Positions 4,077 through 64,000 are shown, numbered from the stretch's first letter. The stretch: DNA of 64,000 bases from Deltaproteobacteria bacterium (GCA_020852715.1 JADZAE010000075.1:23960-87959), one strand, 5' to 3'. Program-made: numbers and translations. The notes: generated from the sequence alone by a model not told the origin.

Positions 4077-5009
4077 CTACATACATTCGAGAAAGAATCG
4101 AAACGTAAACACGGACGGCATCTTAGAAAACACCTCGCTTTCGATTAAATTATAGCTATACATGTTCTCGGTTTGCGCGGTAATCTGCGGCACATAATTT
4201 CCTAAATACTTTGTGCGCTCCACCCGATCAGCAATGAATTTTTTATTAACTGAGTATTTTATTACCTTATTATTAACAAACCAGATCGCTTCATCCTCCT
4301 TTTCTAAAATATTATAACTCTCAGCGGCGCAGTTAAAATGCTCACGCGCACGATTTAAGGCTTCCAAATTCCCACTATCATACCAATCAAATTCCCGCTC
4401 TCCTATTCCCTGCGAAATTAAAAACTTCAGTCCATAGCTTTCCCCGATTTCAATGGAGCCTTCATTTTTCCCCTCTTCCATTGCCTGCCAAAAAGCCTGA
4501 TAATCCTTGATTCCCGCCAGTCCAATGTAAGGAGAAACATCACCGCTCGCCCCTTTCGAACAAATCTCTTTTACCAGACCACCTTCTTTAATTATCGAAC
4601 GATACGGGGACGTATCTTCCACCTGACAATAATGCCCCATCCAAATCTCTTCAGGCTCGGGGATAGATTCTGTGACCAGAGTATCATTGTAACAAAATAT
4701 AAAAGGGCACTGTAAAACATCTTTTGCACAAAGTAGCGAATATCCTAACCCACTTCCTTCCCCCTCGTATCGATCAACGTTGACAAAAGTAAATTTTCGA
4801 TCGGGATAAACCATTTGCAAAAAACCCATCACTGTTTCTTTCTTGTAGCCTATGGGAATAACGAGCTCGATATCAACCGGAAATTTTTCAATCACATAGG
4901 AGATGGCCGGCTTGTTGCCTATACTAACCAGTGCTTTCTTCACGTGTTTAGAAAGAGTCTTTAACCTTGCTTCTAACCCAGCAGTAGGAATAACAACTTT
5001 ATATTTCAT
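4077..5009 (-). CDS. Sugar-phosphate/phosphocholine nucleotidyltransferase domain (LicC/MurU-like), N-terminal half of a nucleotidyltransferase-kinase fusion
   Basis: KVVIPTAGLEARLKTL...KALVSIGNKPAI is the NTP-transferase signature. The likely start is MKYKVV at 5009. Alternative upstream starts are ATG at 5054 and TTG at 5060. Confidence 0.6.
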   Translation of the reverse strand: MKYKVVIPTAGLEARLKTLSKHVKKALVSIGNKPAISYVIEKFPVDIELVIPIGYKKETVMGFLQMVYPDRKFTFVNVDRYEGEGSGLGYSLLCAKDVLQCPFIFCYNDTLVTESIPEPEEIWMGHYCQVEDTSPYRSIIKEGGLVKEICSKGASGDVSPYIGLAGIKDYQAFWQAMEEGKNEGSIEIGESYGLKFLISQGIGEREFDWYDSGNLEALNRAREHFNCAAESYNILEKEDEAIWFVNNKVIKYSVNKKFIADRVERTKYLGNYVPQITAQTENMYSYNLIESEVFSKMPSVFTFRFFLECM

Positions 5010-5521: not shown

Positions 5522-6559
5522 CTAGAGAATGGGGAAAATATAATATCCACAGATAATAGCTTTTTCGACGGCCGAAAGATTGCTCCCTTTAGCTTGCCAT
5601 TTTATCCAGCGGCCAGAATCAACGGCTAATTTTATAAATGCGTTAAAGGATTCGCTCAGTCCATATAGATTGAGGCAATATAGCAGAGCCTGAGTTTCCG
5701 CCACCCCTAATTCCCGAGCAATATTGGAGGCATGTATCTCTATACCGGGTCTAAGTAACAGGGCCTCATCGGGTAAATAATCAGTATTATATTCCTTCAG
5801 TAAGATTGTGCGTTGATTACAAATGTCTAGTGTCTTTTTATTATTATCTCGTAAACTTTGAACAGACTCGTAATCAGTAAGCTCTAAATTAAAGGCACCA
5901 ACATTACGCGTTTCAACAACTTTTGTTACGGTTTAAGCCACTACAAAAGTGGGCCGCGGATATTTATGTTGGCGACAGAATAAGTCAACTTTCTCTAAAA
6001 AATAAGCAAAGTGCTCGTGACATAGATACCCGCCTGATTGCTCTTCCGTGCCTAATTCAAATTCTATTGTCTTGTTATGTTGCTCAGCAAAGGAAACACA
6101 ATAAGAGTATAGCTCAAAAAGTCTGTCAAGAACGATATCTAAATCAAAATCTCGAGCATCGGAACTAATACTAGGGTCGATGTGAATAAATGAAAAGTCA
6201 GATAGTATATCCTCCTCATATGATTTCTTTGCCGTTGCTATAGCTTCTTCTGTGGCTAACTTTTGTTCATTAGCTCCTTGCCATGGACCACCATGGTCAC
6301 GAGCCATAAAAAGACATGGGCTAGCTAAAGATTTCACATAATCACTGAATTCTTCCGTGGAATAATTTTCTACATATCCTCCACCTAACTCTTGCGCATC
6401 AATCTGCCGTCGGCTAGCAATTAGAATCATCGGAATTTTATGATGGGCAGAAATTTGAGTACAAATATCAATGCTGTTTCTGCTCATTGGACCAAGGTAC
6501 GGCAAGGTGCAACGATTGGCCGCTATATAGCTACGAATGTATTCTCCTAGACTCCCCAT
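5522..6559 (-). pseudogene. GatZ/KbaZ-family (tagatose-bisphosphate aldolase accessory / tagatose-6-P kinase-like) gene with an in-frame TAA at 5933-5935
   Basis: IASRRQIDAQELGGGY...ARDHGGPW aligns to GatZ EATSNQVNQFGGYTG...GGDHLGPN. ORFs 5933-6559 and 5522-5704 are in the same frame, separated by TAA. Confidence 0.5.
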
Positions 6560-7187: not shown

Positions 7188-7324
7188 TACGCAAGAAGTT
7201 AGTTGAACGGCATATTACTAAGTAATTAAGTTTTGCGTGCGGTATAAAGAAAAGCAAGGATGCTTTTCGCGGAAGCGAAACCCCGATTCGCGTCCGTAAA
7301 TGCCCATAAATAAGCCATTGATGG
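7188..7324 (-). repeat. Rep-A leader element, copy 3 (reverse orientation), ending about 115 bp upstream of the kdsC-like start
   Basis: The reverse complement matches 12312-12464 (GCCATCCATGGCTTCATTAAGAGCA...CGAATCGGGGTTTCGC...ATACCGCAC...GTGCGGTAT). Confidence 0.7.
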
Positions 7325-7440
7325 CCTATTTATGAGCAAAATGAAACTAAGCCCCATCCGGGCGGATTTTGCGAAGCAAAATCATGGGGCAGAAACTAAG
7401 CCTTCACATATTTAGTCGTTTTCGATTAGGAAATGTCAGA
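7325..7440 (+). repeat. Rep-B element, copy 1
   Basis: It shares the core ...TTTTGCGAAGCAAAA..ATGGGG...GACTAAGCCTTCACA..TTAGTCGTTT.CGAT with 28782-28865 and 38358-38440. Confidence 0.65.
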
Positions 7441-7636
7441 TTAATCATTAGTATTTTTATAATAGCGTTATTTGATTGCAATTTTTAACCATGTGAAGGT
7501 TTATCCATTTGCTTAGGGCAATGACAAAATGAATGCGCTATGGGTTTCTGCTCATATACTATGTATTAAAAATGGAAACTTATTGCATATTATATCATCC
7601 AAATTAACACTGCAGTGGAGGTTAAAAAGGAAACTA

Positions 7637-12106: not shown

Positions 12107-12233
12107 TGTGTTGCTGGCTCAACCATTTTAACTAAGCTCCACACCGGAGTAGCTGATAATTTAGACAATTACTTATAAGTATTTGATGCGATTTAGATCA
12201 GTAAAGTTGCAAAGTAGATACCATTACTAAAAA

Positions 12234-12464
12234 CTAAATTAACTTTTGAGCTGAAAAGCATAAATGCTTTCTATCTTTGTCCTAAGGTAATGGTATATTT
12301 TTGTTCGGCTCTTACTTCAGCCATCCATGGCTTCATTAAGAGCATTTTCGGAGGCGAATCGGGGTTTCGCCCCCGAGGAAACCATCCTTGGTTTCCTCCA
12401 TACCGCACTCAAAAATAGTATTACCTAGTAAAGCATCGTTTAATTTAGTTTTTGTGTGCGGTAT
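12234..12464 (+). repeat. Rep-A composite element, copy 1: palindromic operator, extended -10-like box, then structured leader ending in a 16-bp inverted-repeat hairpin
   Basis: The sequence is AAATTAACTTTTGAGCTGAAAAGCATAAATGCTTTCTATC..TGGTATATT..GCCATCCATGGCTTC...ATACCGCACTCAAAAA...TTTTTGTGTGCGGTAT. It ends 109 bp before the ATG at 12573. Confidence 0.8.
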
Positions 12465-12572
12465 ATAACGACTATTGCCATAATATCACTAGCAAATATC
12501 CGATTTGCTAAATTTGAATCAACTCACCTTAGAAATTAATCTTATTAAACAGACAATTATCCAGGGGAAGCA

Positions 12573-15029
12573 ATGAGCAATTTAATGTCATTTATTATTT
12601 GTACTGACTCCTACTATCAGGAAGCCGAGTTAGTCAGTGTACTGATTTCCAGTCAGCAGCAAAGCATAGCCGATTTAGAGGTTATCTGTTTGTGCGACAA
12701 TGATCGTTTGGCCGAGCTTAAAAACATTGCCGCCGACTTCACTGTTCCCGTCAATATTATTTTGACCGATGGAAAAAATGCGAACCAAGGCAAAAATTTG
12801 GCCCTGAAACAAGCTCAGGGAGAATATATTGTTATCCTTGAGCGAGGTTATTTCCCTCAACCTGACTGCTGTAAAAGAATCATAGAAATCTTTCGCAATA
12901 ACCCAACAATTGGAATGATCTACTCATCCACAGATATTATCGGTTCTGACCCTAGTGATCCAAATAGAACGTTTACCTGTCTGCGAGAAACTCCCGGGCC
13001 GCTAATCAAAGCTAACATCCTTTACCGGCCTTTTTTTCCTGCACATACAGCTTTCAAAAAATCGTTATTGCGTCCAGAGATAACCTTTTCCGACCGCATG
13101 AATGACGCCAATAGAATTTTCTTCAACTCCTTATTTATTGAAGCAAGAGAACAAGCTTTTTATCATTCACGGCCTTTGTTTAAAAAATATGTAACGCAGC
13201 TTGATCTGATTAACGATGTCCAGTCCAGCAATCATTTATCTTTGGTCGATTCTGTTAGAAATTGTCCCGGACTGTATTCCCCGGAATTGTATCAGGGATA
13301 TGAAACTTTCCAGCAATTATTTAAGGATAGTATGAGCAAACCGCTGCTCATTTATATTCCTCAGCCGAAAATTGGTGCTGATAATCTTATTGGTGAGGCT
13401 TCATGGCGCTACATTCAATGCATTTATGACATTTGGGATTTCATAATTCTCCAAGTTCCGATCAGTGACCCAGAACAAATGATTGATGGTTTGGTTAATG
13501 GCATGTTTTATTCTCGCTTTTACACTCAGAATATCGATGATACACTCAATCGTATTTGTTCCTTCGGAAAAAAAATTGTCCTAATAGCCGAAGAAAATCC
13601 TGCCCTTTTGATGGCTTCTAAAACCCGCCATCAAGTTATTGTAAGAATACTCTGCACGGCCAATCCTTTTACCTATGAGGATTTTGATCAAATAGATTTG
13701 GTGATCAAGGCCAGCGAATATACCCCGGTTCAGCTAAACAACACAGCATGCTTAGATACATCAATTCGCGAACTAACTGGCGATCCGGCGGTTCAAAGTG
13801 CCCTTGCGCAGCTATTTTATGAAAAAGAAAGTGAGCGCGATACAAATTTAAAAGCATTGGCTCTAAAACTAAAGACAGCTAAACAATATTTGCGTAATTA
13901 TAAAGCCCCTAACCAGGACGAACTTTCATTATCGGTCATTATTGGTTGTCGCAATGTCCAACTGGAATGCCTAGAACGCTGCGTAGCCTCGTTACGTCAG
14001 CAAGATCACGTCTCGGCTATTGACATCATTTTATCTGACTATGGATCAGATAATCTTCACAGGGAGGAGTTAAAAGCTTTAGCCGATCGCTACCAGGCAA
14101 AGCATGTCTATACACCTTCGACGAACTGTTGGTCTCGTTCGATTGCGCTTAATATTGGTATCCAATCAGCAACTAAAAAATGGGTGTTAACAACCGACGC
14201 CGATATGCTTTTTAGTCGCGGTTTTATCTCGATGCTCTCGGCCTATCTTAAAGCTTTCGGCGAAAAGTGCGTATTCTATGCACAACCTTTAAAGCTACTA
14301 CCGGTGCGATTGCCCAAGGATTGGAACAACAGCCTTTATGATCAATATGCACAACGAAGTTGGCTCTTTGACAAAATCGGCAAAGGTGGCTGTCAGGTAG
14401 CGACACGAGAACTATTAATGAAGGTACGCGGCTTTAACGAGATTTATTCCGTTTGGGGTCAAGAAGATCACGATATGTATGAGCGCCTAGGCTGGGCCGG
14501 GCTAGAACGAGTATGGATTGAACCCTGCTGGTATCTGCATCAATGGCATCTGTCGAATATTAACTACGCCGCAGCTAACAACGCCAATACCGAAGCTTAC
14601 TTAGAGTTAAAAAAGATTCCCAAAGTAATAGTCAACCGTCCGTTTTGGGGAAAAAGTTCACCAGCAGCTTTCATGAAAGCGCAAAATTCACATACTTCGT
14701 TTGCTTCTACCGGGCTTAATAAAAATGACTTGGAAAGAGACATTCTCGAAAATGATTTTGATCCTGTAATGCAGAAACAAATTCTTACCGGTATTGTTCG
14801 GACACTCATTGAACTTGAGCAGTACGGTTCAGCATTACAAACGCTGGAAGATATCTGTCAGCTTGATAGCCGAGATTATGAGGCGTTTACTCTCAGGGCC
14901 CAAATTACTTCCATGTTAGGCGATCACTGTTTTGCCCGAATTCTTATCGATCAGGCTTTGGAAGCTAATTCTTATCACCAGCAGGCTCTTGATCTGAGTA
15001 ATATGTTAATCCAGCGCTACGGATTATAG
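12573..15029 (+). CDS. Tandem GT2 glycosyltransferase (two GT2 domains) with a C-terminal TPR domain
   Basis: The two GT2 cores are VICLCDNDRL...EYIVILERG and LSVIIGCRN...ILSDYGSDN...TTDADMLF. The C-terminal region (ILTGIVRTLIELEQYGSALQTLEDICQLD...) is TPR-like. Confidence 0.75.
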   Translation: MSNLMSFIICTDSYYQEAELVSVLISSQQQSIADLEVICLCDNDRLAELKNIAADFTVPVNIILTDGKNANQGKNLALKQAQGEYIVILERGYFPQPDCCKRIIEIFRNNPTIGMIYSSTDIIGSDPSDPNRTFTCLRETPGPLIKANILYRPFFPAHTAFKKSLLRPEITFSDRMNDANRIFFNSLFIEAREQAFYHSRPLFKKYVTQLDLINDVQSSNHLSLVDSVRNCPGLYSPELYQGYETFQQLFKDSMSKPLLIYIPQPKIGADNLIGEASWRYIQCIYDIWDFIILQVPISDPEQMIDGLVNGMFYSRFYTQNIDDTLNRICSFGKKIVLIAEENPALLMASKTRHQVIVRILCTANPFTYEDFDQIDLVIKASEYTPVQLNNTACLDTSIRELTGDPAVQSALAQLFYEKESERDTNLKALALKLKTAKQYLRNYKAPNQDELSLSVIIGCRNVQLECLERCVASLRQQDHVSAIDIILSDYGSDNLHREELKALADRYQAKHVYTPSTNCWSRSIALNIGIQSATKKWVLTTDADMLFSRGFISMLSAYLKAFGEKCVFYAQPLKLLPVRLPKDWNNSLYDQYAQRSWLFDKIGKGGCQVATRELLMKVRGFNEIYSVWGQEDHDMYERLGWAGLERVWIEPCWYLHQWHLSNINYAAANNANTEAYLELKKIPKVIVNRPFWGKSSPAAFMKAQNSHTSFASTGLNKNDLERDILENDFDPVMQKQILTGIVRTLIELEQYGSALQTLEDICQLDSRDYEAFTLRAQITSMLGDHCFARILIDQALEANSYHQQALDLSNMLIQRYGL

Positions 15030-15071
15030 CTACTAGAGGGCTAGGGATTTTCTATACCACTCCCAAGAAAT

Positions 15072-15491
15072 AAATTAACTTTTAAGCTGAAAAGCATAAA
15101 TGCTTTCTATCTTCGTCCTATGGGAATGGTACATTTTTGTTTCGCTCTTAATCCTAAAAAAATCAGTCGAGGCGATAGGAAGCCTCAAAAAAATAAAAAA
15201 TCGCGCCCACTTACCTTAGAATTTGAAAATTACCAGCGGGTGGCGCGATTTTTTATTTTTTTGAGGGCTACCTAAAGAGATTCACTGAGTTTTTGGGATT
15301 GATAAAACGGCTACTGCCGTTTTTAGGTTAATTTAGCCATCCATGGCTTCATTAAGAGCAGATGCGGGAGCGAATCAGGGTTTCGCTCCCGAAGAAAGCA
15401 TCCTTGCTTTCCTTTATACCGTACACAAAAATAGTATTACCTGGTAAAGCACCGTTCAAGGTCTTTGTTTCAACTTTTTTGTGTACGGTAT
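15072..15491 (+). repeat. Rep-A composite element, copy 2, carrying a ~185-bp insertion (15150-15333) that holds a terminator cassette
   Basis: Identical blocks are AAATTAACTTTTAAGCTGAAAAGCATAAATGCTTTCTATC and GCCATCCATGGCTTCATTAAGAGCA...ATACCGTACACAAAAA...TTTTTTGTGTACGGTAT. The element ends 146 bp before the ATG at 15637. Confidence 0.8.
15236..15330. terminator. Repeated terminator cassette (hairpins AAAAAATCGCGCCCAC/GTGGCGCGATTTTTT and AAAACGGCTACTGCCGTTTTT), also present at the window end
   Basis: These are GC stem-loops flanked by A/T runs on both sides. The reverse complement matches 63928-64000. Confidence 0.6.
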
Positions 15492-25385: not shown

Positions 25386-25444
25386 CCTTACACAAAAAGT
25401 TTGAACGGTGTCTTACTGGGTATTACTATTTTTGTGTGCGGTAT
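25386..25444 (-). repeat. Partial Rep-A hairpin copy (CCTTACACAAAAA...TTTTTGTGTGCGGTAT) between convergent genes
   Basis: Its loop is the reverse complement of the copy-2 loop (ATAGTAATACCCAGTAAGACACCGTTCAAAC). Confidence 0.6.
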
Positions 25445-25470
25445 AAAATACATTGCCGAAGAGTACATAA

Positions 25471-28189: not shown

Positions 28190-28744
28190 GCATTAATGCT
28201 ATTTCGGAAATGCTGCAAGCTCTGCCGTTAAGAACTCAGTAGCGAATTTGCTTCATGAACCACAACAAACGCAACATCCCACTTCTTCAATCTGACAGTG
28301 CAAAGCAACTCTTTCCTTACTACCCAACGAACTTATAGACGCGCTTTTCAAACCAAAGGGTTCAAAAAAATGCCTATTGAATAAGAAAAAAGTTATCGCA
28401 CCAACTTCGACTACCCCCAGCTAAACAAGGTCAGAAAACTCGAGCATCGTTCCCATAAAAAACCAGTATTTCCTTAGGGCGGATACTACGTTAGTTTGTT
28501 TGCAAACAAAATAGCATTTACAAAACTTTTACATCTTTTTGTTACAAAAACCGACCTCTAGCTGTCAACATGATAGTCCTTAGTTCTTGTACTCACAGAT
28601 TTAGAGAGAATTAAGATCCCTAACTGCGATGGCAATCTATTACCTTTACTTCGGTAGTAATAGCTGGGTGTAAAGTTAAGCTCTCTAAATAGCTATCATT
28701 TAAGCCTTAAGAGGGTTTTAATGTATCCGTTCACGACCTTTACT

Positions 28745-28937
28745 GAGTTTCTATTCAAAAGCCTCCAGAGGAAGCAAGTTTTGCGAAGCAAAACTATGGA
28801 GGGGACGAAGACTAAGCCTTCACAAGATTAGTTGTTTCCGATTATAAAACGACAATAAATAACTATAAATGTTCATATTTGCAATACCTCAGGAACGCTA
28901 TTAGTAATAATCCGTGAAGGCTTACGTTTTAGCTTCG
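28745..28937 (+). repeat. Rep-B element, copy 2 (with distal inverted repeat TAAGCCTTCACAAG / CCGTGAAGGCTTAC)
   Basis: It matches 38316-38520 over about 190 bp and contains the hairpin GTTTTGCGAAGCAAAAC. Confidence 0.75.
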
Positions 28938-29191
28938 TTATCCACAGCTTTACAAATTATATGATTGCTCAAGCGCCAAGCTTTAGTTAATTAAGCCGAA
29001 AGTCTAGCTGGGGATAGCAACATATCTTCCTTAGCGGGATAAGTTATTTAATAAAACAAGGGTATTTGCATATATGCTAATCGATAGTATTTATTGGGCT
29101 TCCCTGATCAAGAATGGCTAATCTGGGAAAGCTTAGTTTTTAGTGATGCACAGCTTTTCCTTCAGAAATATTTGAACTTATTAGGTTATTT

Positions 29192-38165: not shown

Positions 38166-38315
38166 ACCAACAGTTCGTAAACTTTTTAATATGGAAGTGT
38201 GGGGATATTTCTTTTTACCTCTTTAATAACCTTCATTAATAAGCCAAACCAAACCTCATAACCTGGAGATACCTTGACTAATCAGGCCTTCCGGCTCAAC
38301 TGCTTCGGTAAAATG

Positions 38316-38520
38316 AATCCATTCACGATTTTTACTGAGTTTCTATCCAAAAGCCCCAAGAGGGGGCAAGTTTTGCGAAGCAAAACTATGGGGGGATGAA
38401 GACTAAGCCTTCACAAGATTAGTCGTTTCCGATGAGGAAACGTCAATAAAATTAAAAATATCCATTTTTTATAATACCCCCAAATTTTTAATAAATCTTA
38501 TCCCGTGAAGGCTTACGGTA
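38316..38520 (+). repeat. Rep-B element, copy 3
   Basis: It matches 28745-28937. Confidence 0.75.
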
Positions 38521-38639: not shown

Positions 38640-39190
38640 CAGACACGAAGTGGGAACGTGCGCAGCGTGAGTGTTTCAAAAAGAATCTAGCGCCAGCTTC
38701 ACGAACTTCCAAATTGCCAAGGCGTTTTTATGGAACGCGGACCCACATTGAGAGCGAGAGCGAACAACTGGGTCGCCTACGCTACAAAGGCACACGATGG
38801 TTGGCGGAACCACAAACCACGCTTGCCGGCATTCTCACCGCCGGCGACCCAGACTCGGCTACGCCGAGGTCATGGGTCGCGTTCCACAGCGTATGCGGAA
38901 TTTTCACTCGTCCATGGCGCTTACACGTTACGCACAAAATAATTCGGATCTTTTTCGAGTCGCGATGGCCAACGACAAAATTGCCCGAAATCGCACCCAG
39001 CTTATGTTTAGGAGAAGAGCAAGTTTGAGCCGGAGACTAGGAAGACAAGCGGCGAGCCCCAATCGGAAGCCTCCGAGCGGCTTCCGGCCCTGTAACTCTT
39101 CATACCTAACGCTAGTAAATTAAAACAAGCTCACAAACTCCCACAGTGTAGGAAACTACATGCGGAGCCGCGCAGTCTGACAGCGTATCC
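38640..39190. repeat. Rep-C: GC-rich (about 55% by eye) MITE-like element, copy A, with terminal inverted repeats TGGAACGCGGACCCA ... TGGGTCGCGTTCCA
   Basis: The island contrasts with the AT-rich flank and carries only spurious overlapping ORFs. Its conserved ends are shared with 48840-49200. Confidence 0.6.
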
Positions 39191-39209
39191 GGCCAAAATT
39201 GCTCTTCTC

Positions 39210-41957
39210 CTAGCGACGCAGCATTTTTTCGATCGCTACTACCGGCAAAATAATCATTCCCATCAAGGCCGCCATCCCCCAATCCTTTAAATCAATGGGG
39301 GTGGTGGAAAATATCTTACTCATCCACGGTAGGTAAATCACAGCGGCTTGCGCGAGAAGCACCCCGAGAATACCGAGGTAGATTGTCCAGTTGCTAAGTA
39401 AACCTATTTCCAAAACGGAGTTTTTTAAGGAGCGACAGTTGAGCATGTAAAATATCTGGAACATGATGACTGTGGTTAGCGCCATAGTTTGAGCTTTGGA
39501 GAGGGCTATTTTGGAATCCATGCCTAGTTGCTGAGCGCTGGAGTACTCCATCTTAAAAAGGACGATTGCGCCGATGGTCATTAAAATCGAAGCGATAATA
39601 GTGCGGGTGACAAGGAACTTATTAAAAATAGGAGCGTTGGGGCTACGTGGATGGCGAGTCATGATGTCCGGCTCCATGTGCTCAAAAGCTAAGGGCAAGG
39701 CAAGAGCCACTGTCATAATCAGGTTAATCCATAATAGCTGTGCGGGCTGCATGGGAAGCAGTAAGTCCTTGGTGGCAAAGTCAAAGGGGAAGAAAATCAC
39801 GGCATAAACCAAAATAAGAGCAAGACCAATGTTGGTGGGAAGAACAAAGGCGAGAGATTTGATTAAGTTATCATAAACGCGACGGCCTTCTTCGACGGCG
39901 GCGGTGATAGTGGCAAAGTTATCGTCGGTAAGCACGATGTCGGCAGCAGCTTTGGATACGGAGGTGCCGGTAATGCCCATGGCCACGCCGATGTTAGCTT
40001 GTTTAAGAGCGGGAGCGTCGTTGACGCCATCGCCTGTCATGGCGGCAATGTGGTTGTTTTTCTGAAGCGCAGAAACTAGCCTTAGTTTGTGCTCAGGCGC
40101 GACGCGGGCAAAAACATTGGTTTCGTCAACGATGTGGCGAAGCTGTTCGTTGTCAGCTTGTTCAATCTGCGCGCCGGTGACAACAGTATGATCTTTGATT
40201 AAGCCTAGCTGAATACCAATAGCTTGAGCGGTTAGGCGGTGGTCACCGGTTATCATCTTTACTGTCACACCGGCGGCTTGGCATTCTTTAATGGCCGCAA
40301 TCGCTTCTTGGCGTGGAGGATCTATCATGCCGACCAGCCCCAGAAATACGATTTCGTCCTTGATGTCAGGCATATCCAAAGACTTCTTGGTAGAAGCAAA
40401 GCGCTTCTCAGCAATGGCCAAAACGCGCATACCGATAGAAGCCATGGTTTCGATACCGGAGAGCACGCGCCTTTCATCTATGGCTTGGCCGTCAGCGAAG
40501 AAGCGGCAGCGCTTTAGAATAACTTCAGGAGCGCCTTTAACAAAAGCGACAGCTTCGCCATTTGGGTCTTGGACAAATGTTGCCATAAATTGGTTTTCGG
40601 ATTCAAAGGGGATAGCGTCAATCAGGCGATACGAGGAGCGCAGCTGCTCAGCGACCAATCCTAGTTTTCGTGCGGCTACGACAAGCGCAGCCTCTGTCGG
40701 ATCGCCTGTTATCGTCCAGCTTTGCCTGTCTTGAATCAAAGTTGAATCGTTACAAACAGTCGCTGCTGTAAGTAGGCGCTCTAGGTATGGAGGCTTTATT
40801 GTCAGCACTTGTTCGGCAGAGAGGATATCGCCTACCGGCTCATAGCCCACGCCCTTAAATTCATAAGACCCTGAAGGCGTCCAAACGGACTGAACTGTCA
40901 TCTCGTTTTTGGTAAGCGTGCCTGTTTTGTCTGAGCAAATAACAGTAGTGCTACCCAGGGTTTCTACGGCCGGGAGCTTACGCACAATGGCTTTTCTTTT
41001 AGCCATTCTCTGCACGCCCACGCCCAGAGCAATAGTCATAATAGCGGGAAGCCCTTCGGGGATAGCGGCGACAGCTAAGGCCACAGCGAAAATCATCATT
41101 TCGATTAGCGCCTTATCCAGCGGAAAGCCGTTTGCTGTTACGCGAAAGGTTCCGACGGCTACGATTAAAATGGTGATAACCAAGATAGCAAAAGTTATAT
41201 ATTTAGCGACGACCTTTAGCGACGAGGTAAGTGGCGTTTCTAAATTAACTGCTTCGTTAAGTAAGCGCGAGATTTTCCCTAGTTCTGTGCGCATGCCCGT
41301 GCCCGTAACCACAGCCATAGCGGTGCCGTAAGTTACCATGGTGCCGCTAAATACCATGCACAGCCTATCGCCTATGCCCGCATCTTCCCTCACCGCGTGA
41401 ATATTCTTCTGCGCCGGCACAGATTCTCCTGTCAGCGCCGCTTCTTCGACTTGCAAATTTTTATGTGACACAAGGCGCATATCGGCTGGAACCCTATCGC
41501 CGGAAGTAAGCATGACAATATCGCCGGGCACTAATTCGGCAGCGGGCAGGGTAATCTTGTGCCCGTCCCGAATAACCGTTGTGTTTTCAGGCACCATCTC
41601 GATAAGCGCTTCAATCGCTTTACCTGCTTTAAACTCTTGAATGAAGCCAATAATCGAATTGAGTATGACAACGGCCAACACAGTAGAGCCGTCAATCAGC
41701 TTTCCCAGGGCCATGGCTAAAGCCGCTGAACCCAGCAGCACCCAAATGAGCGGGCTATTGATTTGCCGCCAAAGTAAGACCAAGGGGCTGTCTCCTTTTG
41801 CGCGCGGAATTGAGTTTGGCCCATACTCGCCGCGGCGCTCAACAACTTCGGCCTCAGTAAGCCCGGAAAGACTAACCCTCAATTGCTTTAGAACTTCTTC
41901 CACGCCTAAAGCGAACCAGCATAAGCCTTCAGTTTTGGATTTCACATCATTGACCAC
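39210..41957 (-). CDS. P-type cation-transporting ATPase (type IIA, Ca2+/PacL-like)
   Basis: TGES, DKTGTLT and GDGVNDAPAL motifs are present, with about 10 TM helices. Confidence 0.85.
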   Translation of the reverse strand: MVNDVKSKTEGLCWFALGVEEVLKQLRVSLSGLTEAEVVERRGEYGPNSIPRAKGDSPLVLLWRQINSPLIWVLLGSAALAMALGKLIDGSTVLAVVILNSIIGFIQEFKAGKAIEALIEMVPENTTVIRDGHKITLPAAELVPGDIVMLTSGDRVPADMRLVSHKNLQVEEAALTGESVPAQKNIHAVREDAGIGDRLCMVFSGTMVTYGTAMAVVTGTGMRTELGKISRLLNEAVNLETPLTSSLKVVAKYITFAILVITILIVAVGTFRVTANGFPLDKALIEMMIFAVALAVAAIPEGLPAIMTIALGVGVQRMAKRKAIVRKLPAVETLGSTTVICSDKTGTLTKNEMTVQSVWTPSGSYEFKGVGYEPVGDILSAEQVLTIKPPYLERLLTAATVCNDSTLIQDRQSWTITGDPTEAALVVAARKLGLVAEQLRSSYRLIDAIPFESENQFMATFVQDPNGEAVAFVKGAPEVILKRCRFFADGQAIDERRVLSGIETMASIGMRVLAIAEKRFASTKKSLDMPDIKDEIVFLGLVGMIDPPRQEAIAAIKECQAAGVTVKMITGDHRLTAQAIGIQLGLIKDHTVVTGAQIEQADNEQLRHIVDETNVFARVAPEHKLRLVSALQKNNHIAAMTGDGVNDAPALKQANIGVAMGITGTSVSKAAADIVLTDDNFATITAAVEEGRRVYDNLIKSLAFVLPTNIGLALILVYAVIFFPFDFATKDLLLPMQPAQLLWINLIMTVALALPLAFEHMEPDIMTRHPRSPNAPIFNKFLVTRTIIASILMTIGAIVLFKMEYSSAQQLGMDSKIALSKAQTMALTTVIMFQIFYMLNCRSLKNSVLEIGLLSNWTIYLGILGVLLAQAAVIYLPWMSKIFSTTPIDLKDWGMAALMGMIILPVVAIEKMLRR

Positions 41958-46423: not shown

Positions 46424-46689
46424 TTTCTCATCCAGTTATTACTCAGCAGCAAGCAACGGCATCTATTGATACATAAAACTTTCTTTCTCAGCTGGCAATC
46501 AGAAAGGCAGAACACCAAGGACAGGAAACAGGAAAGTAAATCAATAATCACAACAAGAATTGAAGCAAAATTGACATTATCTATCGCAAAATGGATTAAA
46601 ACTTATCCCCTTACATAAAGAGAAAACAAAAATCGCCCTCAAGCGCTCATTGAAAGATAATAAGTTTGGAGGTTATCCCTGAGAAGGTT

Positions 46690-47340
46690 GTAATAAAGAT
46701 ATCAGAACCAATAAAGATTGAACCATCTTCAGCTCCTCCGTCAGTAATGTCTCCGTCCCAATTAAAGTCAACGTTGTCACCACTATCAAGCTTCCCTATT
46801 AAGTTAATCCCCCATTAGGAGCAACAATTACAGACCTGCCCAAGTCATTGCCATATTGTGTCACTCTTTTGGCATATTCCCAATTTCCCGCTGAATCAAA
46901 AACGCTTACAAAAGCACCTGCTCCACTATTACTTTCCGCACCACCATCAGTATAATCACCATCGCCGTTCATATCAGCATTGCCAGTAATAGAACCCGTA
47001 ACAATAACAGAATTTGCAGAATTCACGGCTACCCCATATCCAATATCTGCACCTGTCCCTCCTAAGCGTTTAGCCCATTGCCTTGAGCCCGCGGAACTAA
47101 ATACCGAAATGAAGGCATCAGTGTCGGCATATCCCGTAGAACTCTCAGCCCCCACCAGCTGCGCTAGCATCACCGTTCATATCTGCCGCACCACTTACCT
47201 TACCAGCAACCATTATATTTCCAGCGACATCTACTGAAACAGCATTGGCATAATCGGCACTTGTGCTACCTAAACGCCTTGCCCAGCGCCAAACAGCGCC
47301 GGAATCAAACACTGTCACAAAAGCAATGAGCATATTGCGC
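46690..47340 (-). pseudogene. Fragments of a beta-propeller (SBBP-repeat) protein gene, multiply disrupted
   Basis: WAKRLGGTGADIGYGVAVNSANSVIVTG and WRWARRLGSTSADYANAVSVDVAGNIMVAG are SBBP repeats. They are split over several frames. Confidence 0.45.
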
Positions 47341-48802
47341 TTATGCCTGATGGTAGTGGCAATGTCGGTATCGGCACAACAGACCCGCTACAACAGCTAG
47401 CGCTAAGCAAATCAATTAGGCTAGAAGAAACTACAGCGTCTGATATTGGGGTTGTGTATAAGGGGAGCAATCGTTTCATTCATGACTTCCGAGCTTAGGA
47501 AACTGATGGCCAAAATATATTTGTTGGTCTTAACACTGGTAATTTCACATTGACCGGAACGATGAACCAGAGTGACAGTAGTTACAACACCGCGCTCGGT
47601 TATAGTGCTCTTACCGCTCTAGAAACAGGAAGCTATAATACCGCAATTGGGCATACTGCATTAACAGCTAATACTACTGGAACTGATAACACAGCTATCG
47701 GTGCAATGGCTCTTGGTATAAATACGGAAGGAGCAGCGAATGTGGCTATTGGATCGGGGGCTTTATCCTTAGTAACAACAGGGTCAGATAATGAGGCCAT
47801 CGGTACTGGCACGGGAGCAAACTTAGTAAGTGGCTCTAACAACACTTTTATCGACAAGCAAGCGGGGGTAGAGATTAACGGTTCGGGAAACGTTTTTATT
47901 GGTTACAGCGCCGGATTTTACGAGACAGGAAGCAATAAACTGTTCATCGACGCACCCTTACGACTAGGCCGCTAATCTATGGCGACTTTAGCACCGATAG
48001 GTTAATTATTAATAACACCATACAGCTCGGTAGCAATAGTGCTGACGGAAGTTTTACAATATTCTCAGAGCAAGGAGGAACCGATTATACTGTTGCCTTT
48101 TCTCCTCATGCTACAATGACGCAAAACGTAACTTATACATTGCCGGCGAATGATGGCGATGCGGGACAAGTATTACAGACAGATGGTAGTGGATCTCTGA
48201 GCTGGGCAACAGCAGCCTCGACGGCGCATGATCATAATGCTAACTATATTGCCTCGCTTGCTCATAATCACGATACGAACTATGCAGCCGCAGCACACGC
48301 TCACTCCGATTATTTAACGTCATTGGCACATAATCATGATGCTGAATATATCACGTCTTTAGCTCACGATCACGATAGCGATTATGTCGCCGCAGCGCAT
48401 GCTCACTCTGATTACTTGAGCTCGCTGGCACATAATCACAGTGGGGATAACTCACTTCCTTAGCACATAACCACGCCGCTGATTATTTGGCTAAAGGCGG
48501 GGACACAATGACAAGAAGCTTGACCTTCTCCGGTGTGGGAGGTTCCTTATGCGATTACTATCCGTAACATAAAAGTCCTTACTGTCGGCGGCTTTGACGA
48601 AACAGATAGTAATGGTGGAACTGTTGTCGCCGTGGATAGCGACATTACTGCTACTGCCGGCACTAGAGCTTCGGACGACGGATCGCTTACTAACCCGACA
48701 ATCGCCGCCAACAATAATGTCTATTGGCATACAACTTCGATCTTCGGCTCACCAACCACTATTATTGTAACTTTCTACGACACAGTTGATTCCGTGAACT
48801 AA
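47340..48802 (+). pseudogene. Phage tail-fibre-like gene remnant (NTAIG repeats, YTLPANDGDAGQVLQTDGSGSLSW motif, His-rich SLAHNHDxxY repeats), frameshifted at least twice
   Basis: ORFs 47550-47975, 48116-48463 and 48533-48802 are contiguous in shifted frames. The motifs are characteristic of tail-fibre / short-fibre proteins. Confidence 0.5.
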
Positions 48803-48839
48803 TCAGCTAGTCCGTAATCTAATCATACGTTTTTATGGT

Positions 48840-49200
48840 TAGGGCACGTGCAACGCTTAAGTCTTATGGCCAATTCTCCGATGCGTGTATTTATTGCTGT
48901 TAAAGAGATCTCACGAACTTGTAAATAACCGTTGCGTTTTTGTGGAGCGCGACCCATCTGGGAGCGGCAGCGGACAGTAGGTCGCCTACGTGTCGGTTTC
49001 CCAATGGCCTTAAGGTGTGAGGCGGCTAGGGCCGAGAAATGCTTTTTTTACGCGATCCTCAGGCAACCCAGTCGCTCCGCAACATGGTTCGCGTTCCACA
49101 GGTACCACGACTCTTGTTGCATTAGCCCACTTTATCCCAAAATAAAAATCCGATATTCTTAATGGGCAACTTGTGTATAAGACTCCCGTGCAACGTATTC
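48840..49200. repeat. Rep-C GC-rich MITE-like element, copy B
   Basis: It shares with copy A the conserved left end (TGGAGCGCGACCCA...GAGCGGCAGCGGACAGTAGGTCGCCTACG) and right end (CATGGTTCGCGTTCCACAG), plus the flanking TCACGAACTT block. Confidence 0.6.
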
Positions 49201-49360
49201 CTACAACATAGCATCGTAATTTAGAAGTTTTGTAATTTGTGTATAATACTTTGCTCGTCTATACTCCTTTTGCTCACAAACAAATACCTCAAGGCTAGAT
49301 GTAGGCAAGCAAAGATAAATTTGCTATTGTCAGCAGAGATAGAAATTTAATTAAAAAGAC

Positions 49361-63278: not shown

Positions 63279-63926
63279 ATGGAATATAAATATCAAATTA
63301 TCATCTATGACCTTGACAGCACCCTTATTGATTCTCAGTGGGACATTGCTGATTCTTTAGTCTATGTGTTGAACGAGCTTAAAATAAACTGCCCTGAATA
63401 TTCTCAGATAGTCATGGGGCATCGTAATGGCGCTCTTGCTTACTTAAAAACCCTGCTTACTTCCGAGGTAACTTTTGAGCGAGCGGCAATTCTTTTTAAA
63501 AAACACTTACTCGCTAACCTCACCAATAAAACATGCCCATTTCCTCACGTTACCGAAACCCTCAGCTCGCTAAGGCGCGATATTAAGCAAGTTATTCTAA
63601 CTGATAAGCCTAGCGAGTTTACTACCCCAACAATAGCTAGCCTAAAAATAGAAGGGTATTTTGATGCTATATATTCCGGAGACTCGTTTACCGAAAAGAA
63701 GCCTAGTGCTCAACCGGTGTTGGAAATTCTAACAACTTTTAATATTCCTAAAGAGAAAGCACTTATTGTCGGTGATTCAATAAAAGATATTTTATGCGGT
63801 AAAAACGCAGGTATCGATACCTGCGGAGTAACTTACGGGACTAGCGAAAGGGAGGCACTGGAAGCATTATCCCCTACTTATGTCATTGAAGATTTTGCGG
63901 AATTATCTGTGCTTGCTAGAGCTTAA
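63279..63926 (+). CDS. HAD-family hydrolase (phosphoglycolate phosphatase-like)
   Basis: IIIYDLDSTLIDS is the DxD motif I. The C-terminal GDSxxD motif is present. The start MEYKYQ is inferred. Confidence 0.7.
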   Translation: MEYKYQIIIYDLDSTLIDSQWDIADSLVYVLNELKINCPEYSQIVMGHRNGALAYLKTLLTSEVTFERAAILFKKHLLANLTNKTCPFPHVTETLSSLRRDIKQVILTDKPSEFTTPTIASLKIEGYFDAIYSGDSFTEKKPSAQPVLEILTTFNIPKEKALIVGDSIKDILCGKNAGIDTCGVTYGTSEREALEALSPTYVIEDFAELSVLARA

Positions 63927-63927
63927 A

Positions 63928-64000
63928 GCAAAAAACGGCAGTAGCCGTTTTATTAACCCTAAAAAACTCAATCTATCTCTTTAGGTAGCCCTCAAAAAAT
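63928..64000. terminator. Terminator cassette (AAAAAACGGCAGTAGCCGTTTTATT...) identical to 15236-15330 in reverse orientation
   Basis: The hairpin AACGGCAGTAGCCGTT followed by a T-run sits immediately after the HAD stop. The flanking sequence CTCTTTAGGTAGCCCTCAAAAAA is conserved. Confidence 0.65.

Follow-up and report, generated by a model that had tools for sequence, protein, structure and literature searches.

Rep-C, a candidate promoter-coupled palindromic repeat from the intergenic regions of an uncultivated Bdellovibrio-like bacterium

Introduction

A GC-rich block that occurs twice in the intergenic DNA of an uncultivated Bdellovibrio-like bacterium raises the question of whether it is a mobile element, a structured RNA or something else. 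The block, here called Rep-C, lies in a window of 64,000 nt (the whole stretch of DNA that was analysed), in which the original prediction had described a GC-rich island of ~550 bp with MITE-like terminal inverted repeats and a second copy of ~360 nt, read as a non-autonomous mobile element or a structured RNA of foreign composition. Among the systems to which such a repeat can be compared are bacterial MITEs (reviewed in PMC3184786), and REPINs, in which two inverted REP units surround a less conserved spacer and form a hairpin in single-stranded DNA or mRNA, and which are mobilised by RAYT tyrosine transposases (Bertels and Rainey 2011, PMC3116915). The closest relatives of the ClpA protein encoded in the window come from Bdellovibrionota metagenome-assembled genomes (MAGs), and because the identity to these nearest MAGs is at most 68%, the source lineage can be regarded as poorly sampled. 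Here, we describe the extent, anatomy, predicted folding and relatives of Rep-C, and weigh the explanations that they allow.

Results

The genes of the window are those of an ordinary chromosome, including glycosyltransferases, purA, lpxC, an H+-pyrophosphatase, a P-type ATPase, mgtC, glucokinase, clpS-clpA, clpX and flagellin, and no transposase, RAYT/Y1, integrase or reverse transcriptase was found among its ~57 ORFs. The first copy of Rep-C (c1) is flanked by a 116-aa ORF and by the ATPase gene, both on the minus strand, and the second copy (c2) by small repeat-rich ORFs and clpS, all on the plus strand. The window is also rich in other structured intergenic repeat families.

Comparison of the two copies by pairwise BLASTN defined a shared unit of 191 nt in each (c1, 38699-38889; c2, 48911-49101), as the segments shared by c1 and c2 end at these positions. 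The 5′ segments (c1 38699-38781 versus c2 48911-48990) are 76% identical (E = 1e-11) and the 3′ segments (c1 38843-38889 versus c2 49062-49101) are 77% identical (E = 0.004), which is well above chance. The 60-70 nt between them are unalignable, in agreement with the original prediction, which had noted that the central parts differ. The proposed repeat is real, but its proposed extents of 550 and 360 nt are not, since neither 38890-39190 nor the outer parts of 48840-49200 belong to the shared sequence. The ends themselves had been placed correctly to within two bases: in c1 they are TGGAACGCGGACCCA at 38731-38745 and TGGGTCGCGTTCCA at 38873-38886, and they recur in c2 as TGGAGCGCGACCCA at 48943-48956 and CATGGTTCGCGTTCCACAG at 49083-49101. 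The GAGCG..AGCG.ACA..GGTCGCCTACG block and the string TCACGAACTT were likewise found in both copies, but of the claimed flanking block ACTCCC.TGCAACG just the ACTCCC hexamer is common, and the block is missed by BLASTN.

The 19-mer at the end of the repeat is exclusive to the two Rep-C copies in the window (shuffle expectation 0.00), and the 8-mer GCGACCCA occurs there four times, always within Rep-C and in alternating orientation (shuffle expectation 0.85). A search of the window using nhmmer with an arm profile detected no third copy, and the lone exception to the confinement of shared strings to the unit is a stray CGTTTTTATGG at 48828, outside the c2 unit. Even though c1 and c2 are at least seven indels apart, the lengths of the palindrome (160 nt) and of the whole unit (191 nt) are equal in both. 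With just two copies seen in the 64-kb window, and arms only ~76% identical, there is no sign of recent multiplication of Rep-C in the source genome.

The GC content over 38650-39100 is 55-56%, close to the ~55% estimated originally, versus 37-41% in the neighbouring intergenic DNA and 42% in the window, and the core of c2 has 59% GC. The view that this composition is foreign was not borne out, as the high GC is that of the arms of the hairpins, and the relatives described below have similar GC-rich hairpins in AT-rich intergenic DNA. The expectation that only short ORFs cover the element was correct: those over c1 have 70-130 aa, and a single one of 76 aa overlaps c2. No ORF is conserved across the copies, as indels shift the frames, and the c2 frame equivalent to the ATG-initiated ORF of c1 reaches a stop after 12 codons.

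Each unit consists of a 32-nt module, named X, followed by a 160-nt imperfect palindrome, TGTGGA...TCCACA (Table 1). The palindrome contains two inverted arms of ~50 nt, with the consensus GGCGACCCA-loop-TGGGTCGCGTTCCACA, around the unalignable centre. All four arms could be aligned with one another by BLASTN and nhmmer as (C)GTAGGCGACCCAG - loop - CATGGGTCGCGTTCCACA, with the left arm of c1 aligning as the reverse complement and with minus-strand BLAST matches linking the arms. Every arm is its own hairpin, in which GCGACCCA and TGGGTCGC form an 8-bp stem with a loop of 21-23 nt, while the left and right arms of c1 together form a 14-bp closing stem. Because each arm is itself a hairpin, Rep-C could fold either into a rod, in which a large internal loop separates the 14-bp outer stem from a 9-bp inner stem, or into a four-way junction. 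The inner and outer helices are built from the same 8-mer, GCGACCCA, and the hairpin loops contain CGAAC(A/G)(A/G), which is similar to the -35 element of the repeat's own promoter-like module.

Table 1. Positions of the Rep-C modules and of features in the adjoining DNA, counted from the first nucleotide of the window
Feature	Position	Strand	Description
c1 upstream module X	38699-38730	+	TCACGAACTT-N13-GCGTTTTTA; ECF-type promoter look-alike
c1 -35 and -10 elements of the look-alike	38702-38708 (cGAACTT); 38723-38726 (CGTT)	+	16 nt apart
c1 left arm	38731-38781	+	TGGAACGCGGACCCA - 23-nt loop (..GAGCGAGAGCGAACAAC) - TGGGTCGCCTACG; nhmmer E = 1.4e-10
c1 central spacer	38782-38842	+	unalignable to c2; local hairpins, e.g., GCCGGC-N9-GCCGGC
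c1 right arm	38843-38889	+	GGCGACCCAG - loop - CATGGGTCGCGTTCCACAG; nhmmer E = 1e-10
GC-rich island remainder	38890-39209	.	outside the repeat; 3′ flank of P-type ATPase gene; no c2 counterpart
Inverted repeat in island remainder	39009-39027 / 39194-39212		19 nt
Hairpin in island remainder			CGGAAGCC..GGCTTCCG
P-type ATPase ORF	39210-41957	-	
c2 upstream module X	48911-48942	+	TCACGAACTT-N13-GCGTTTTTG; GAAC 48915-48918, CGTT 48935-48938
c2 left arm	48943-48990	+	TGGAGCGCGACCCA - loop (..GAGCGGCAGCGGACAG) - TAGGTCGCCTACG; nhmmer E = 2.4e-12
c2 central spacer	48991-49061	+	unrelated to c1 spacer
c2 right arm	49062-49101	+	GGCAACCCAG - loop - CATGGTTCGCGTTCCACAG; nhmmer E = 2.7e-8

The predicted folding of both copies is far better than that of shuffled sequences, which is in accord with the structured-RNA half of the original prediction. 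The z-scores of the two copies are -5.1 and -4.0 for the plus strand, and -5.7 and -4.2 for the minus strand, so that the two strands fold equally well and a strand asymmetry is absent. When the two sequences were analysed together using RNAalifold, the closing stem alone was retained, with a covariation term of -1.75 kcal/mol, and a double change was present in 1 of the 25 consensus pairs. Three of the four 8-mers of c2 are substituted without compensation; one of these changes leaves a G.U pair on the plus strand and another a G.U pair on the minus strand. Such changes, uncompensated or pointing to opposite strands, are expected of a DNA palindrome rather than of a strand-specific RNA.

The best-conserved part of the unit is module X, TCACGAACTT-N13-GCGTTTTT(A/G), which lies outside the inverted repeat and had been overlooked in the original prediction. 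Its two blocks, TCACGAACTT and GCGTTTTT, are identical between c1 and c2 at 18 of 18 positions, while the spacer matches at 6 of 13 and is of equal length. Both copies contain cGAACTT-N14-CGTT, that is GAAC-N16-CGTT, ending 5-8 nt 5′ of the palindrome. The promoter consensus of ECF (group IV) sigma factors is GGAAC-N16-CGTT, in which the -35 element is formed by G, AAC and a T-tract, and the -10 element by CGTT (PMC7083833; PMC1540707). Module X matches this consensus at eight of nine positions with the exact spacing, and also has TT after AAC. In the window, GAAC-N16-CGTT was observed four times versus 1.3 expected, and two of the four are those of Rep-C. According to the geometry of ECF promoters, the start of transcription is predicted 5-8 nt past CGTT (PMC7083833), which places it at the very beginning of the palindrome, in the first bases of its closing stem. 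Module X therefore looks like the signature of a promoter rather than of a transposon end. A sigma-54 or sigma-70 promoter does not fit its spacing and hexamers, and the sigma-70 scan was blank at X. No gene for an ECF or other sigma factor was found in the 64-kb window, and the scan for intrinsic terminators found none after c1 or c2.

The contigs of relatives were fetched via neighbouring proteins of the window (ClpA and ATPase homologs), and 27 loci were checked for the 11-base string TGGANCGCGGAC. The only relatives of Rep-C were found in poorly sampled Bdellovibrionota metagenome bins. On the contig L008, which encodes an ATPase 81% identical to that of the window, a 244-nt palindrome (6156-6396) is located ~170 nt past the stop of the orthologous ATPase gene; the synteny is limited to the ATPase side, because on its other side the palindrome has a neighbouring gene with no homology to that in the window. 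Its 67-nt arms are 82% complementary (fold z = -13), and it has tips, TGGACCGCGAC and GTCGCGCTCCA, that agree with TGGANCGCG(G)AC of Rep-C, with an unrelated interior. Pieces of module X, TCACGAAC ... TTTTTTATGGAC, are placed inside the loop at the wrong spacing. On L021 (ClpA 60% identical, GC 37.6%), a 151-nt element was found at 4425-4575 (z = -12), in which arms of 35 nt with 97% complementarity enclose an AT-rich spacer of 81 nt. Its tips are TGGACCGCGGAC, compared to TGGAACGCGGAC in c1, and its two repeat tips are the sole places among the 27 loci where TGGANCGCGGAC occurs. Each arm of this element contains the hairpin GCGGACG-TCCT-CGTCCGC, and X is absent. The genes on its two sides are convergent, and TAATTTTTAA comes after the element.

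Two further contigs have hairpins at the site that corresponds to that of c2. On L010 (ClpA 62% identical), the sequence GAAC-N15-CGTTTTTGTGG, which is module X with a spacer shorter by one base, is followed by a different GC-rich structured stretch of 150 nt (z = -7.4); as with c2 in the window, this pair is located in the divergent region that separates clpS from the mgtC/glucokinase operon, and has the orientation of clpS. On L009 (ClpA 68% identical), a long hairpin (z = -8) at the mgtC-clpS site shares CGAGGTCG...GAACGGAAATTGCG with the L010 element, and no correctly spaced X is present. A second hairpin-doublet palindrome on L010 (12330-12730) is unrelated. A putative terminal inverted repeat on L010, AGAACGCG...CGCGTTCT, was judged spurious, as its 3′ half overlaps the stop region of a CBS-domain gene, and the match of TGGACCGCG in L024-L026 was rejected as a family member because it sits in an uncalled coding region. 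In the more distant L020 and L022-L027 the spacer between mgtC/glk and clpS is short and the element is absent, and the distant ClpA/ATPase homolog loci L020 and L022-L028 have conserved synteny and contain no further family members. An empty site was not found in the relatives.

Broader searches gave no further copies. Strict two-block scans returned seven loci from 185,579 species genomes, nine from JGI metagenomes and seven from IMG/VR, all of them chance matches in GC-rich coding DNA, and blastn against plasmid and phage collections gave no match to Rep-C. A chimeric query of seven lineage-specific proteins of the window detected no further contigs of close relatives. At the gathering thresholds of Rfam 15, the window contains three tRNAs only, and the relatives contain nothing; in E-value mode the best scores were 16.8 bits for RAGATH-11 (threshold 79.4) and 24.1 bits for Afu_203 (threshold 37). 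The original prediction had stated that tmRNA, RNase P and SRP RNA are absent, which agrees with the lack of Rfam matches and with the ARAGORN search, in which no tmRNA was detected. Neither of the outcomes that it had named as contradicting it, a housekeeping RNA of Rfam or fragments of an IS transposase gene, was seen. The target-site duplications that it had proposed to look for were not found either: up to 3 nt from the ends, none of c1, c2, L008 and L021 has a shared direct repeat of at least 3 nt, with the exception of a lone GCGT at c1, which is not present at c2.

Discussion

The resemblance of module X to a promoter makes the best reading of Rep-C that of a lineage-restricted, promoter-coupled extragenic palindromic repeat of REPIN/MITE type, probably transcribed from the plus strand, to which we would give a probability of about one half. 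According to this explanation, two inverted arms of ~50 nt would flank a spacer that is free to vary, the tips TGGANCGCG(G)AC would be kept within and between genomes while the interiors turn over fast, and the element would persist at the same intergenic sites in relatives. Plus-strand transcription is probable because the look-alike cGAAC-N16-CGTT directly adjoins the palindrome and the predicted start falls on its first bases; the product would be a rod or cruciform RNA of ~160 nt, as with ERIC and Correia repeats. We infer that Rep-C may also have propagated at the DNA level, since the recurrence of its tips on the otherwise unrelated palindromes of L008 and L021 resembles the behaviour of the ends of a MITE or REPIN family. 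The near-perfect, young-looking versions in relatives and the uncompensated decay in c2 also point to a palindromic repeat, as do the inverted-doublet layout, the building of inner and outer helices from one 8-mer, the equal folding of the two strands, and a spacer that is not conserved in sequence and apparently constrained in length. Unrelated hairpin-doublets are likewise present in intergenic DNA of L010 (12330-12730) and L009 (4350-4486), as are structured repeats in the window.

Several observations do not fit this explanation easily. The lack of target-site duplications at four elements argues against a classical cut-and-paste MITE, and the window contains two copies and no gene for a transposase, RAYT or integrase, while the strict-pattern scans of the collections returned chance matches only. 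The mobile-element half of the original prediction is in this way supported by the inverted arms and by the tips recurring in L008 and L021, and weakened by the same missing duplications, missing transposase and low copy number. Moreover, a conserved module outside the inverted repeat is not predicted by a simple terminal-inverted-repeat or REPIN model, and arms with 8-bp stems and loops of 21-23 nt are unlike the compact hairpins typical of REPs. Selection on a function could equally well account for the persistence of the element, together with X, at the same position in distant relatives. The data are compatible with both halves of the original prediction, mobile element and structured RNA, and establish neither.

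The main alternative, though less probable, is that c1 and c2 are two paralogous, immobile genes of ~160-nt sRNAs, either trans-acting or protein-binding, with cGAAC-N16-CGTT as a promoter used by an ECF (group IV) sigma factor. The closing stem would be formed by pairing of the two ends of the RNA, the left-arm loop GAGCG..AGCG.ACA would be the conserved functional part, and the centre would vary. This is consistent with the promoter-like blocks being the most conserved and the diverged spacer of X having a fixed length, with a predicted start that falls where the closing stem begins, and with a strongly folding GC-rich island in AT-rich intergenic DNA, which is typical of structured RNAs. 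Also the presence of an X-like module with a GC-rich hairpin at mgtC/glucokinase-clpS both in the window (c2) and on L010 could be explained in this way, and sRNAs dependent on ECF sigma factors exist, such as MicA and RybB of E. coli and, reportedly, GsrN of Caulobacter. On the other hand, neither copy is followed by an intrinsic terminator, the single double change among 25 pairs and the equal folding of both strands are not what an sRNA suggests, and the use of the same 8-mer in the inner and outer helices is not required by RNA function. The relatives with the same tips are near-perfect duplexes of 35-67 bp, one of them (L021) without X and the other (L008) with X misspaced and in the loop, and there is no Rfam match.

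More doubtful is a related proposal, in which X and the hairpin together would be an undescribed functional unit, namely an ECF-driven, rod-shaped RNA of ~160 nt that has long been kept at mgtC/glucokinase-clpSA, with a paralog antisense to the 3′ end of the ATPase operon. The arms would then evolve in concert, and because the CGAAC(A/G)(A/G) of the hairpin loops is similar to the unit's own -35 element, the unit could act as a stress-induced regulator, as a sigma-factor decoy, or as a distal stress promoter and leader for clpS-clpA.

It is unlikely that Rep-C is a passive 3′-end hairpin, which would serve as a terminator or mRNA stabiliser for the ATPase operon (c1 and L008), for the upstream ORFs (c2) and for the convergent genes (L021). 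REP-type hairpins do stabilise upstream mRNA, and both c1 and the L008 palindrome are located 170-320 nt past the stop of the same ATPase gene, while the position of the L021 element between convergent genes, ahead of TAATTTTTAA, would also suit such a role. However, the stem is not followed by a U-tract on either strand of either window copy, and the scan detected no terminator; the T-run of the plus strand is 5′ of the stem, and on the minus strand an A-run follows it. The conservation of module X would also be left unexplained.

Quite improbable as well is a protein-binding array acting at the DNA level, with a regulator or recombinase bound to four GCGACCCA half-sites beside the promoter, e.g., for DNA looping or promoter control. 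The four alternating occurrences of an 8-mer that is exclusive to Rep-C and adjoins a promoter-like module would agree with it, as would their spacing, ~31 bp from centre to centre within the inverted pairs and ~105 bp between the pairs, which is near whole helical turns. But in c2 the intact X contrasts with substitutions in three of the four half-sites, the outer tips, and not the four-site layout, are all that recurs on L008 and L021, and no candidate binding protein is encoded nearby in the window.

The remnant of a coding gene or of an IS transposase gene is very improbable, since the ORFs that overlap both copies are disrupted by frame-shifting indels and by the early stop in c2, a coding sequence would not be expected to be palindromic or to have an unalignable centre, and there is no plasmid or phage match. 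Several known RNA and DNA elements could be rejected: a retron ncRNA (no reverse transcriptase downstream), a TnpB, IscB or IS110 guide RNA (no adjacent nuclease or recombinase gene, no HEARO match), an integron attC site (ends unlike RYYYAAC/GTTRRRY, no integrase), 6S RNA (no Rfam 6S match at E up to 10; the near-perfect duplexes of the relatives do not fit), and a clpS leader or riboswitch, as clpS has its own extended -10 sigma-70 promoter, TTTAGA-16-TATAAT (49220-49247), downstream of c2. An IS200/IS605-derived PATE, which has subterminal hairpins and an insertion site that follows a constant tetra- or pentanucleotide, does not fit, because the arms, with loops and tails included, are inverted rather than in the same orientation, and because no conserved short target precedes the unit (AGCT|TCACG versus GATC|TCACG).

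If Rep-C is a promoter-coupled palindromic repeat, then hairpin-doublet repeats extend to a barely sampled lineage of Bdellovibrionota, and Rep-C, with palindrome and ECF-type promoter so tightly paired, would be an unusual case among them. It could then serve as a marker of intergenic repeats in annotation, and hairpin or antisense RNA induced by stress might arise from it near clpSA and the cation-ATPase operon. If the copies are instead sRNA genes, they would represent a new RNA family of an ECF regulon. Either way the practical impact is limited, as the lineage is uncultivated, the copies are a handful, and no long-standing open question is touched.

In REPINs the ends are conserved and the spacer less so, with constraints on length and on hairpin formation (PMC3116915). 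Rep-C has the same layout of inverted REP-like units around a less conserved spacer that jointly form a hairpin, and it is also similar to REPINs in its variable spacer, extragenic location, lack of target-site duplications and persistence at the same sites. The L021 element is very REPIN-like, with its 35-nt arms, internal hairpin and 81-nt AT-rich spacer. Rep-C differs from REPINs in that two diverged copies (~76%) are visible, the arm loops are long, and a promoter-like module lies outside. REPs are compact imperfect palindromes of 20-40 nt headed by a conserved GT(A/G)G, and REPINs form populations of tens to hundreds of copies beside a single-copy RAYT gene that has REPs on its flanks. 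Of the sequences comparable to such a head in Rep-C, CGTAG precedes GCGACCCA at the left arm only (minus strand), and GTGG/ATGG is present at the outer tips. To our knowledge, no RAYT has been described for this lineage.

The 14-bp closing repeat within inverted homologous arms of ~50 nt is a terminal inverted repeat as in MITEs, but since target-site duplications are absent from all four elements, Rep-C is not assigned to the classical MITEs, and we know of no related autonomous IS. The Correia elements of Neisseria and the enterobacterial ERIC/IRU elements give rise to hairpin RNAs and have promoters within or next to them, and Correia elements duplicate TA. Rep-C is like them in its size of 100-250 nt, terminal inverted repeats of the TG...CA type (TGTGGA...TCCACA), intergenic location, strong RNA hairpins, and tips conserved over differing interiors, while it differs in lacking a target-site duplication and in having its promoter-like module outside the inverted repeat rather than within it. 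With ECF-dependent sRNAs Rep-C shares the upstream consensus match and a predicted short, stable, structured RNA with no ORF, and it differs from them by the lack of a terminator and of covariation, by its near-palindromic rod, and by the lack of an ECF sigma gene in the window. Hence, Rep-C can be likened in its working to REPINs or promoter-bearing MITEs, and it may be expressed like ECF-dependent sRNAs, but on this evidence it is not assigned to any of these groups. Rather than a new kind of system, what is new in Rep-C would be its constant coupling to an ECF-type promoter, together with arms that turn over in concert while the sites are conserved.

The inverted repeat at the 3′ end of the P-type ATPase gene and neighboring repeats

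The original prediction had treated the GC-rich island at 38640-39190 as one repeated element, of which only the part that belongs to copy c1 (38699-38889) is Rep-C, the 191-nt palindromic intergenic unit. The remaining GC-rich part is accounted for by a 19-nt inverted repeat (Table) together with the hairpin that it encloses. The right arm of this repeat overlaps the P-type ATPase gene at its stop codon, and the 166 nt between the arms include the perfect hairpin CGGAAGCC-TCCGAGC-GGCTTCCG. One copy of the ~140-nt family, the hairpins of which are GCCCC..GGGGC and GTTTTGCGAAGCAAAAC, is located 250 nt upstream of c1. The comparison of this family with Rfam gave DUF3800-II RNA with 20.8 bits, which is below the gathering score of 43.2.

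Table. Structured, repeated and promoter-like features besides the two Rep-C copies
Feature	Position	Strand	Remarks
19-nt inverted repeat	39009-39027 / 39194-39212		95% complementary
~140-nt intergenic repeat family, distinct from Rep-C	38312-38450, 28720-28859, 7360-7443	+	88-90% identity
Further structured intergenic repeat family	12218-12443, 15054-15459, 7231-7349 (inverted), 25392-25447
Pair of ~40-nt segments	15257-15329 and 63926-63999		88-92% complementary, 48 kb apart
Strongly folding segment	42020-42150	minus	z about -4 versus GC-matched regression
~2.9 kb with small, repeat-rich ORFs only	46424-49360		between glucokinase/mgtC and clpS
CAACGAACTT-N13-TCAAA, sigma-E/ECF-like promoter look-alike	28327-28360	+	1-kb intergenic region 28190-29191
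Third exact CGTTTTTATGG	48828-48838	+
~400-nt palindrome	12330-12730 (contig L010)		directly downstream of clpA

Other structured segments and promoter-like blocks

The sites of the further structured family are among the strongest-folding spots of the window, and every copy contains the hairpin ATACCGCAC.CAAAAA / TTTTTGTGTGCGGTAT. The paired ~40-nt segments, within which the hairpin AAAACGGCAGTAGCCGTTTT is found, may represent one more repeat family. The minus-strand segment with strong folding is situated between the stop of the H+-pyrophosphatase gene and the start of the P-type ATPase gene; it has no match among the Rfam families.

The promoter look-alike shares its -35 block, ACGAACTT, with module X, the 32-nt ECF-sigma-type promoter look-alike that heads each Rep-C copy. 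The third CGTTTTTATGG follows the stop codon of ORF 48533-48802 at a distance of 26 nt and precedes module X of the second Rep-C copy, c2, by 83 nt. It may be a leftover of another copy; no palindrome is present downstream of it.

Comparison with relatives

In eight relatives, only 100-300 nt lie between glucokinase/mgtC and clpS, versus ~2.9 kb in the window; this ~2.9-kb stretch resembles an insertion or the decayed remains of a gene cluster. Its small ORFs, which have no match in Pfam, contain repeats of the NTAIG type and of H-N-H-D and a 102-nt tandem duplication (48223-48426); c2 is also located inside this stretch. In L010, a contig of a Bdellovibrionota relative with ClpA 62% identical to that of the window, the palindrome has 68-nt arms with 71% complementarity, and a perfect hairpin (GGGGAATTTGG / CCAAATTCCCC) forms each of its tips. 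The palindrome has no sequence relationship to Rep-C and represents a second family of hairpin doublets.
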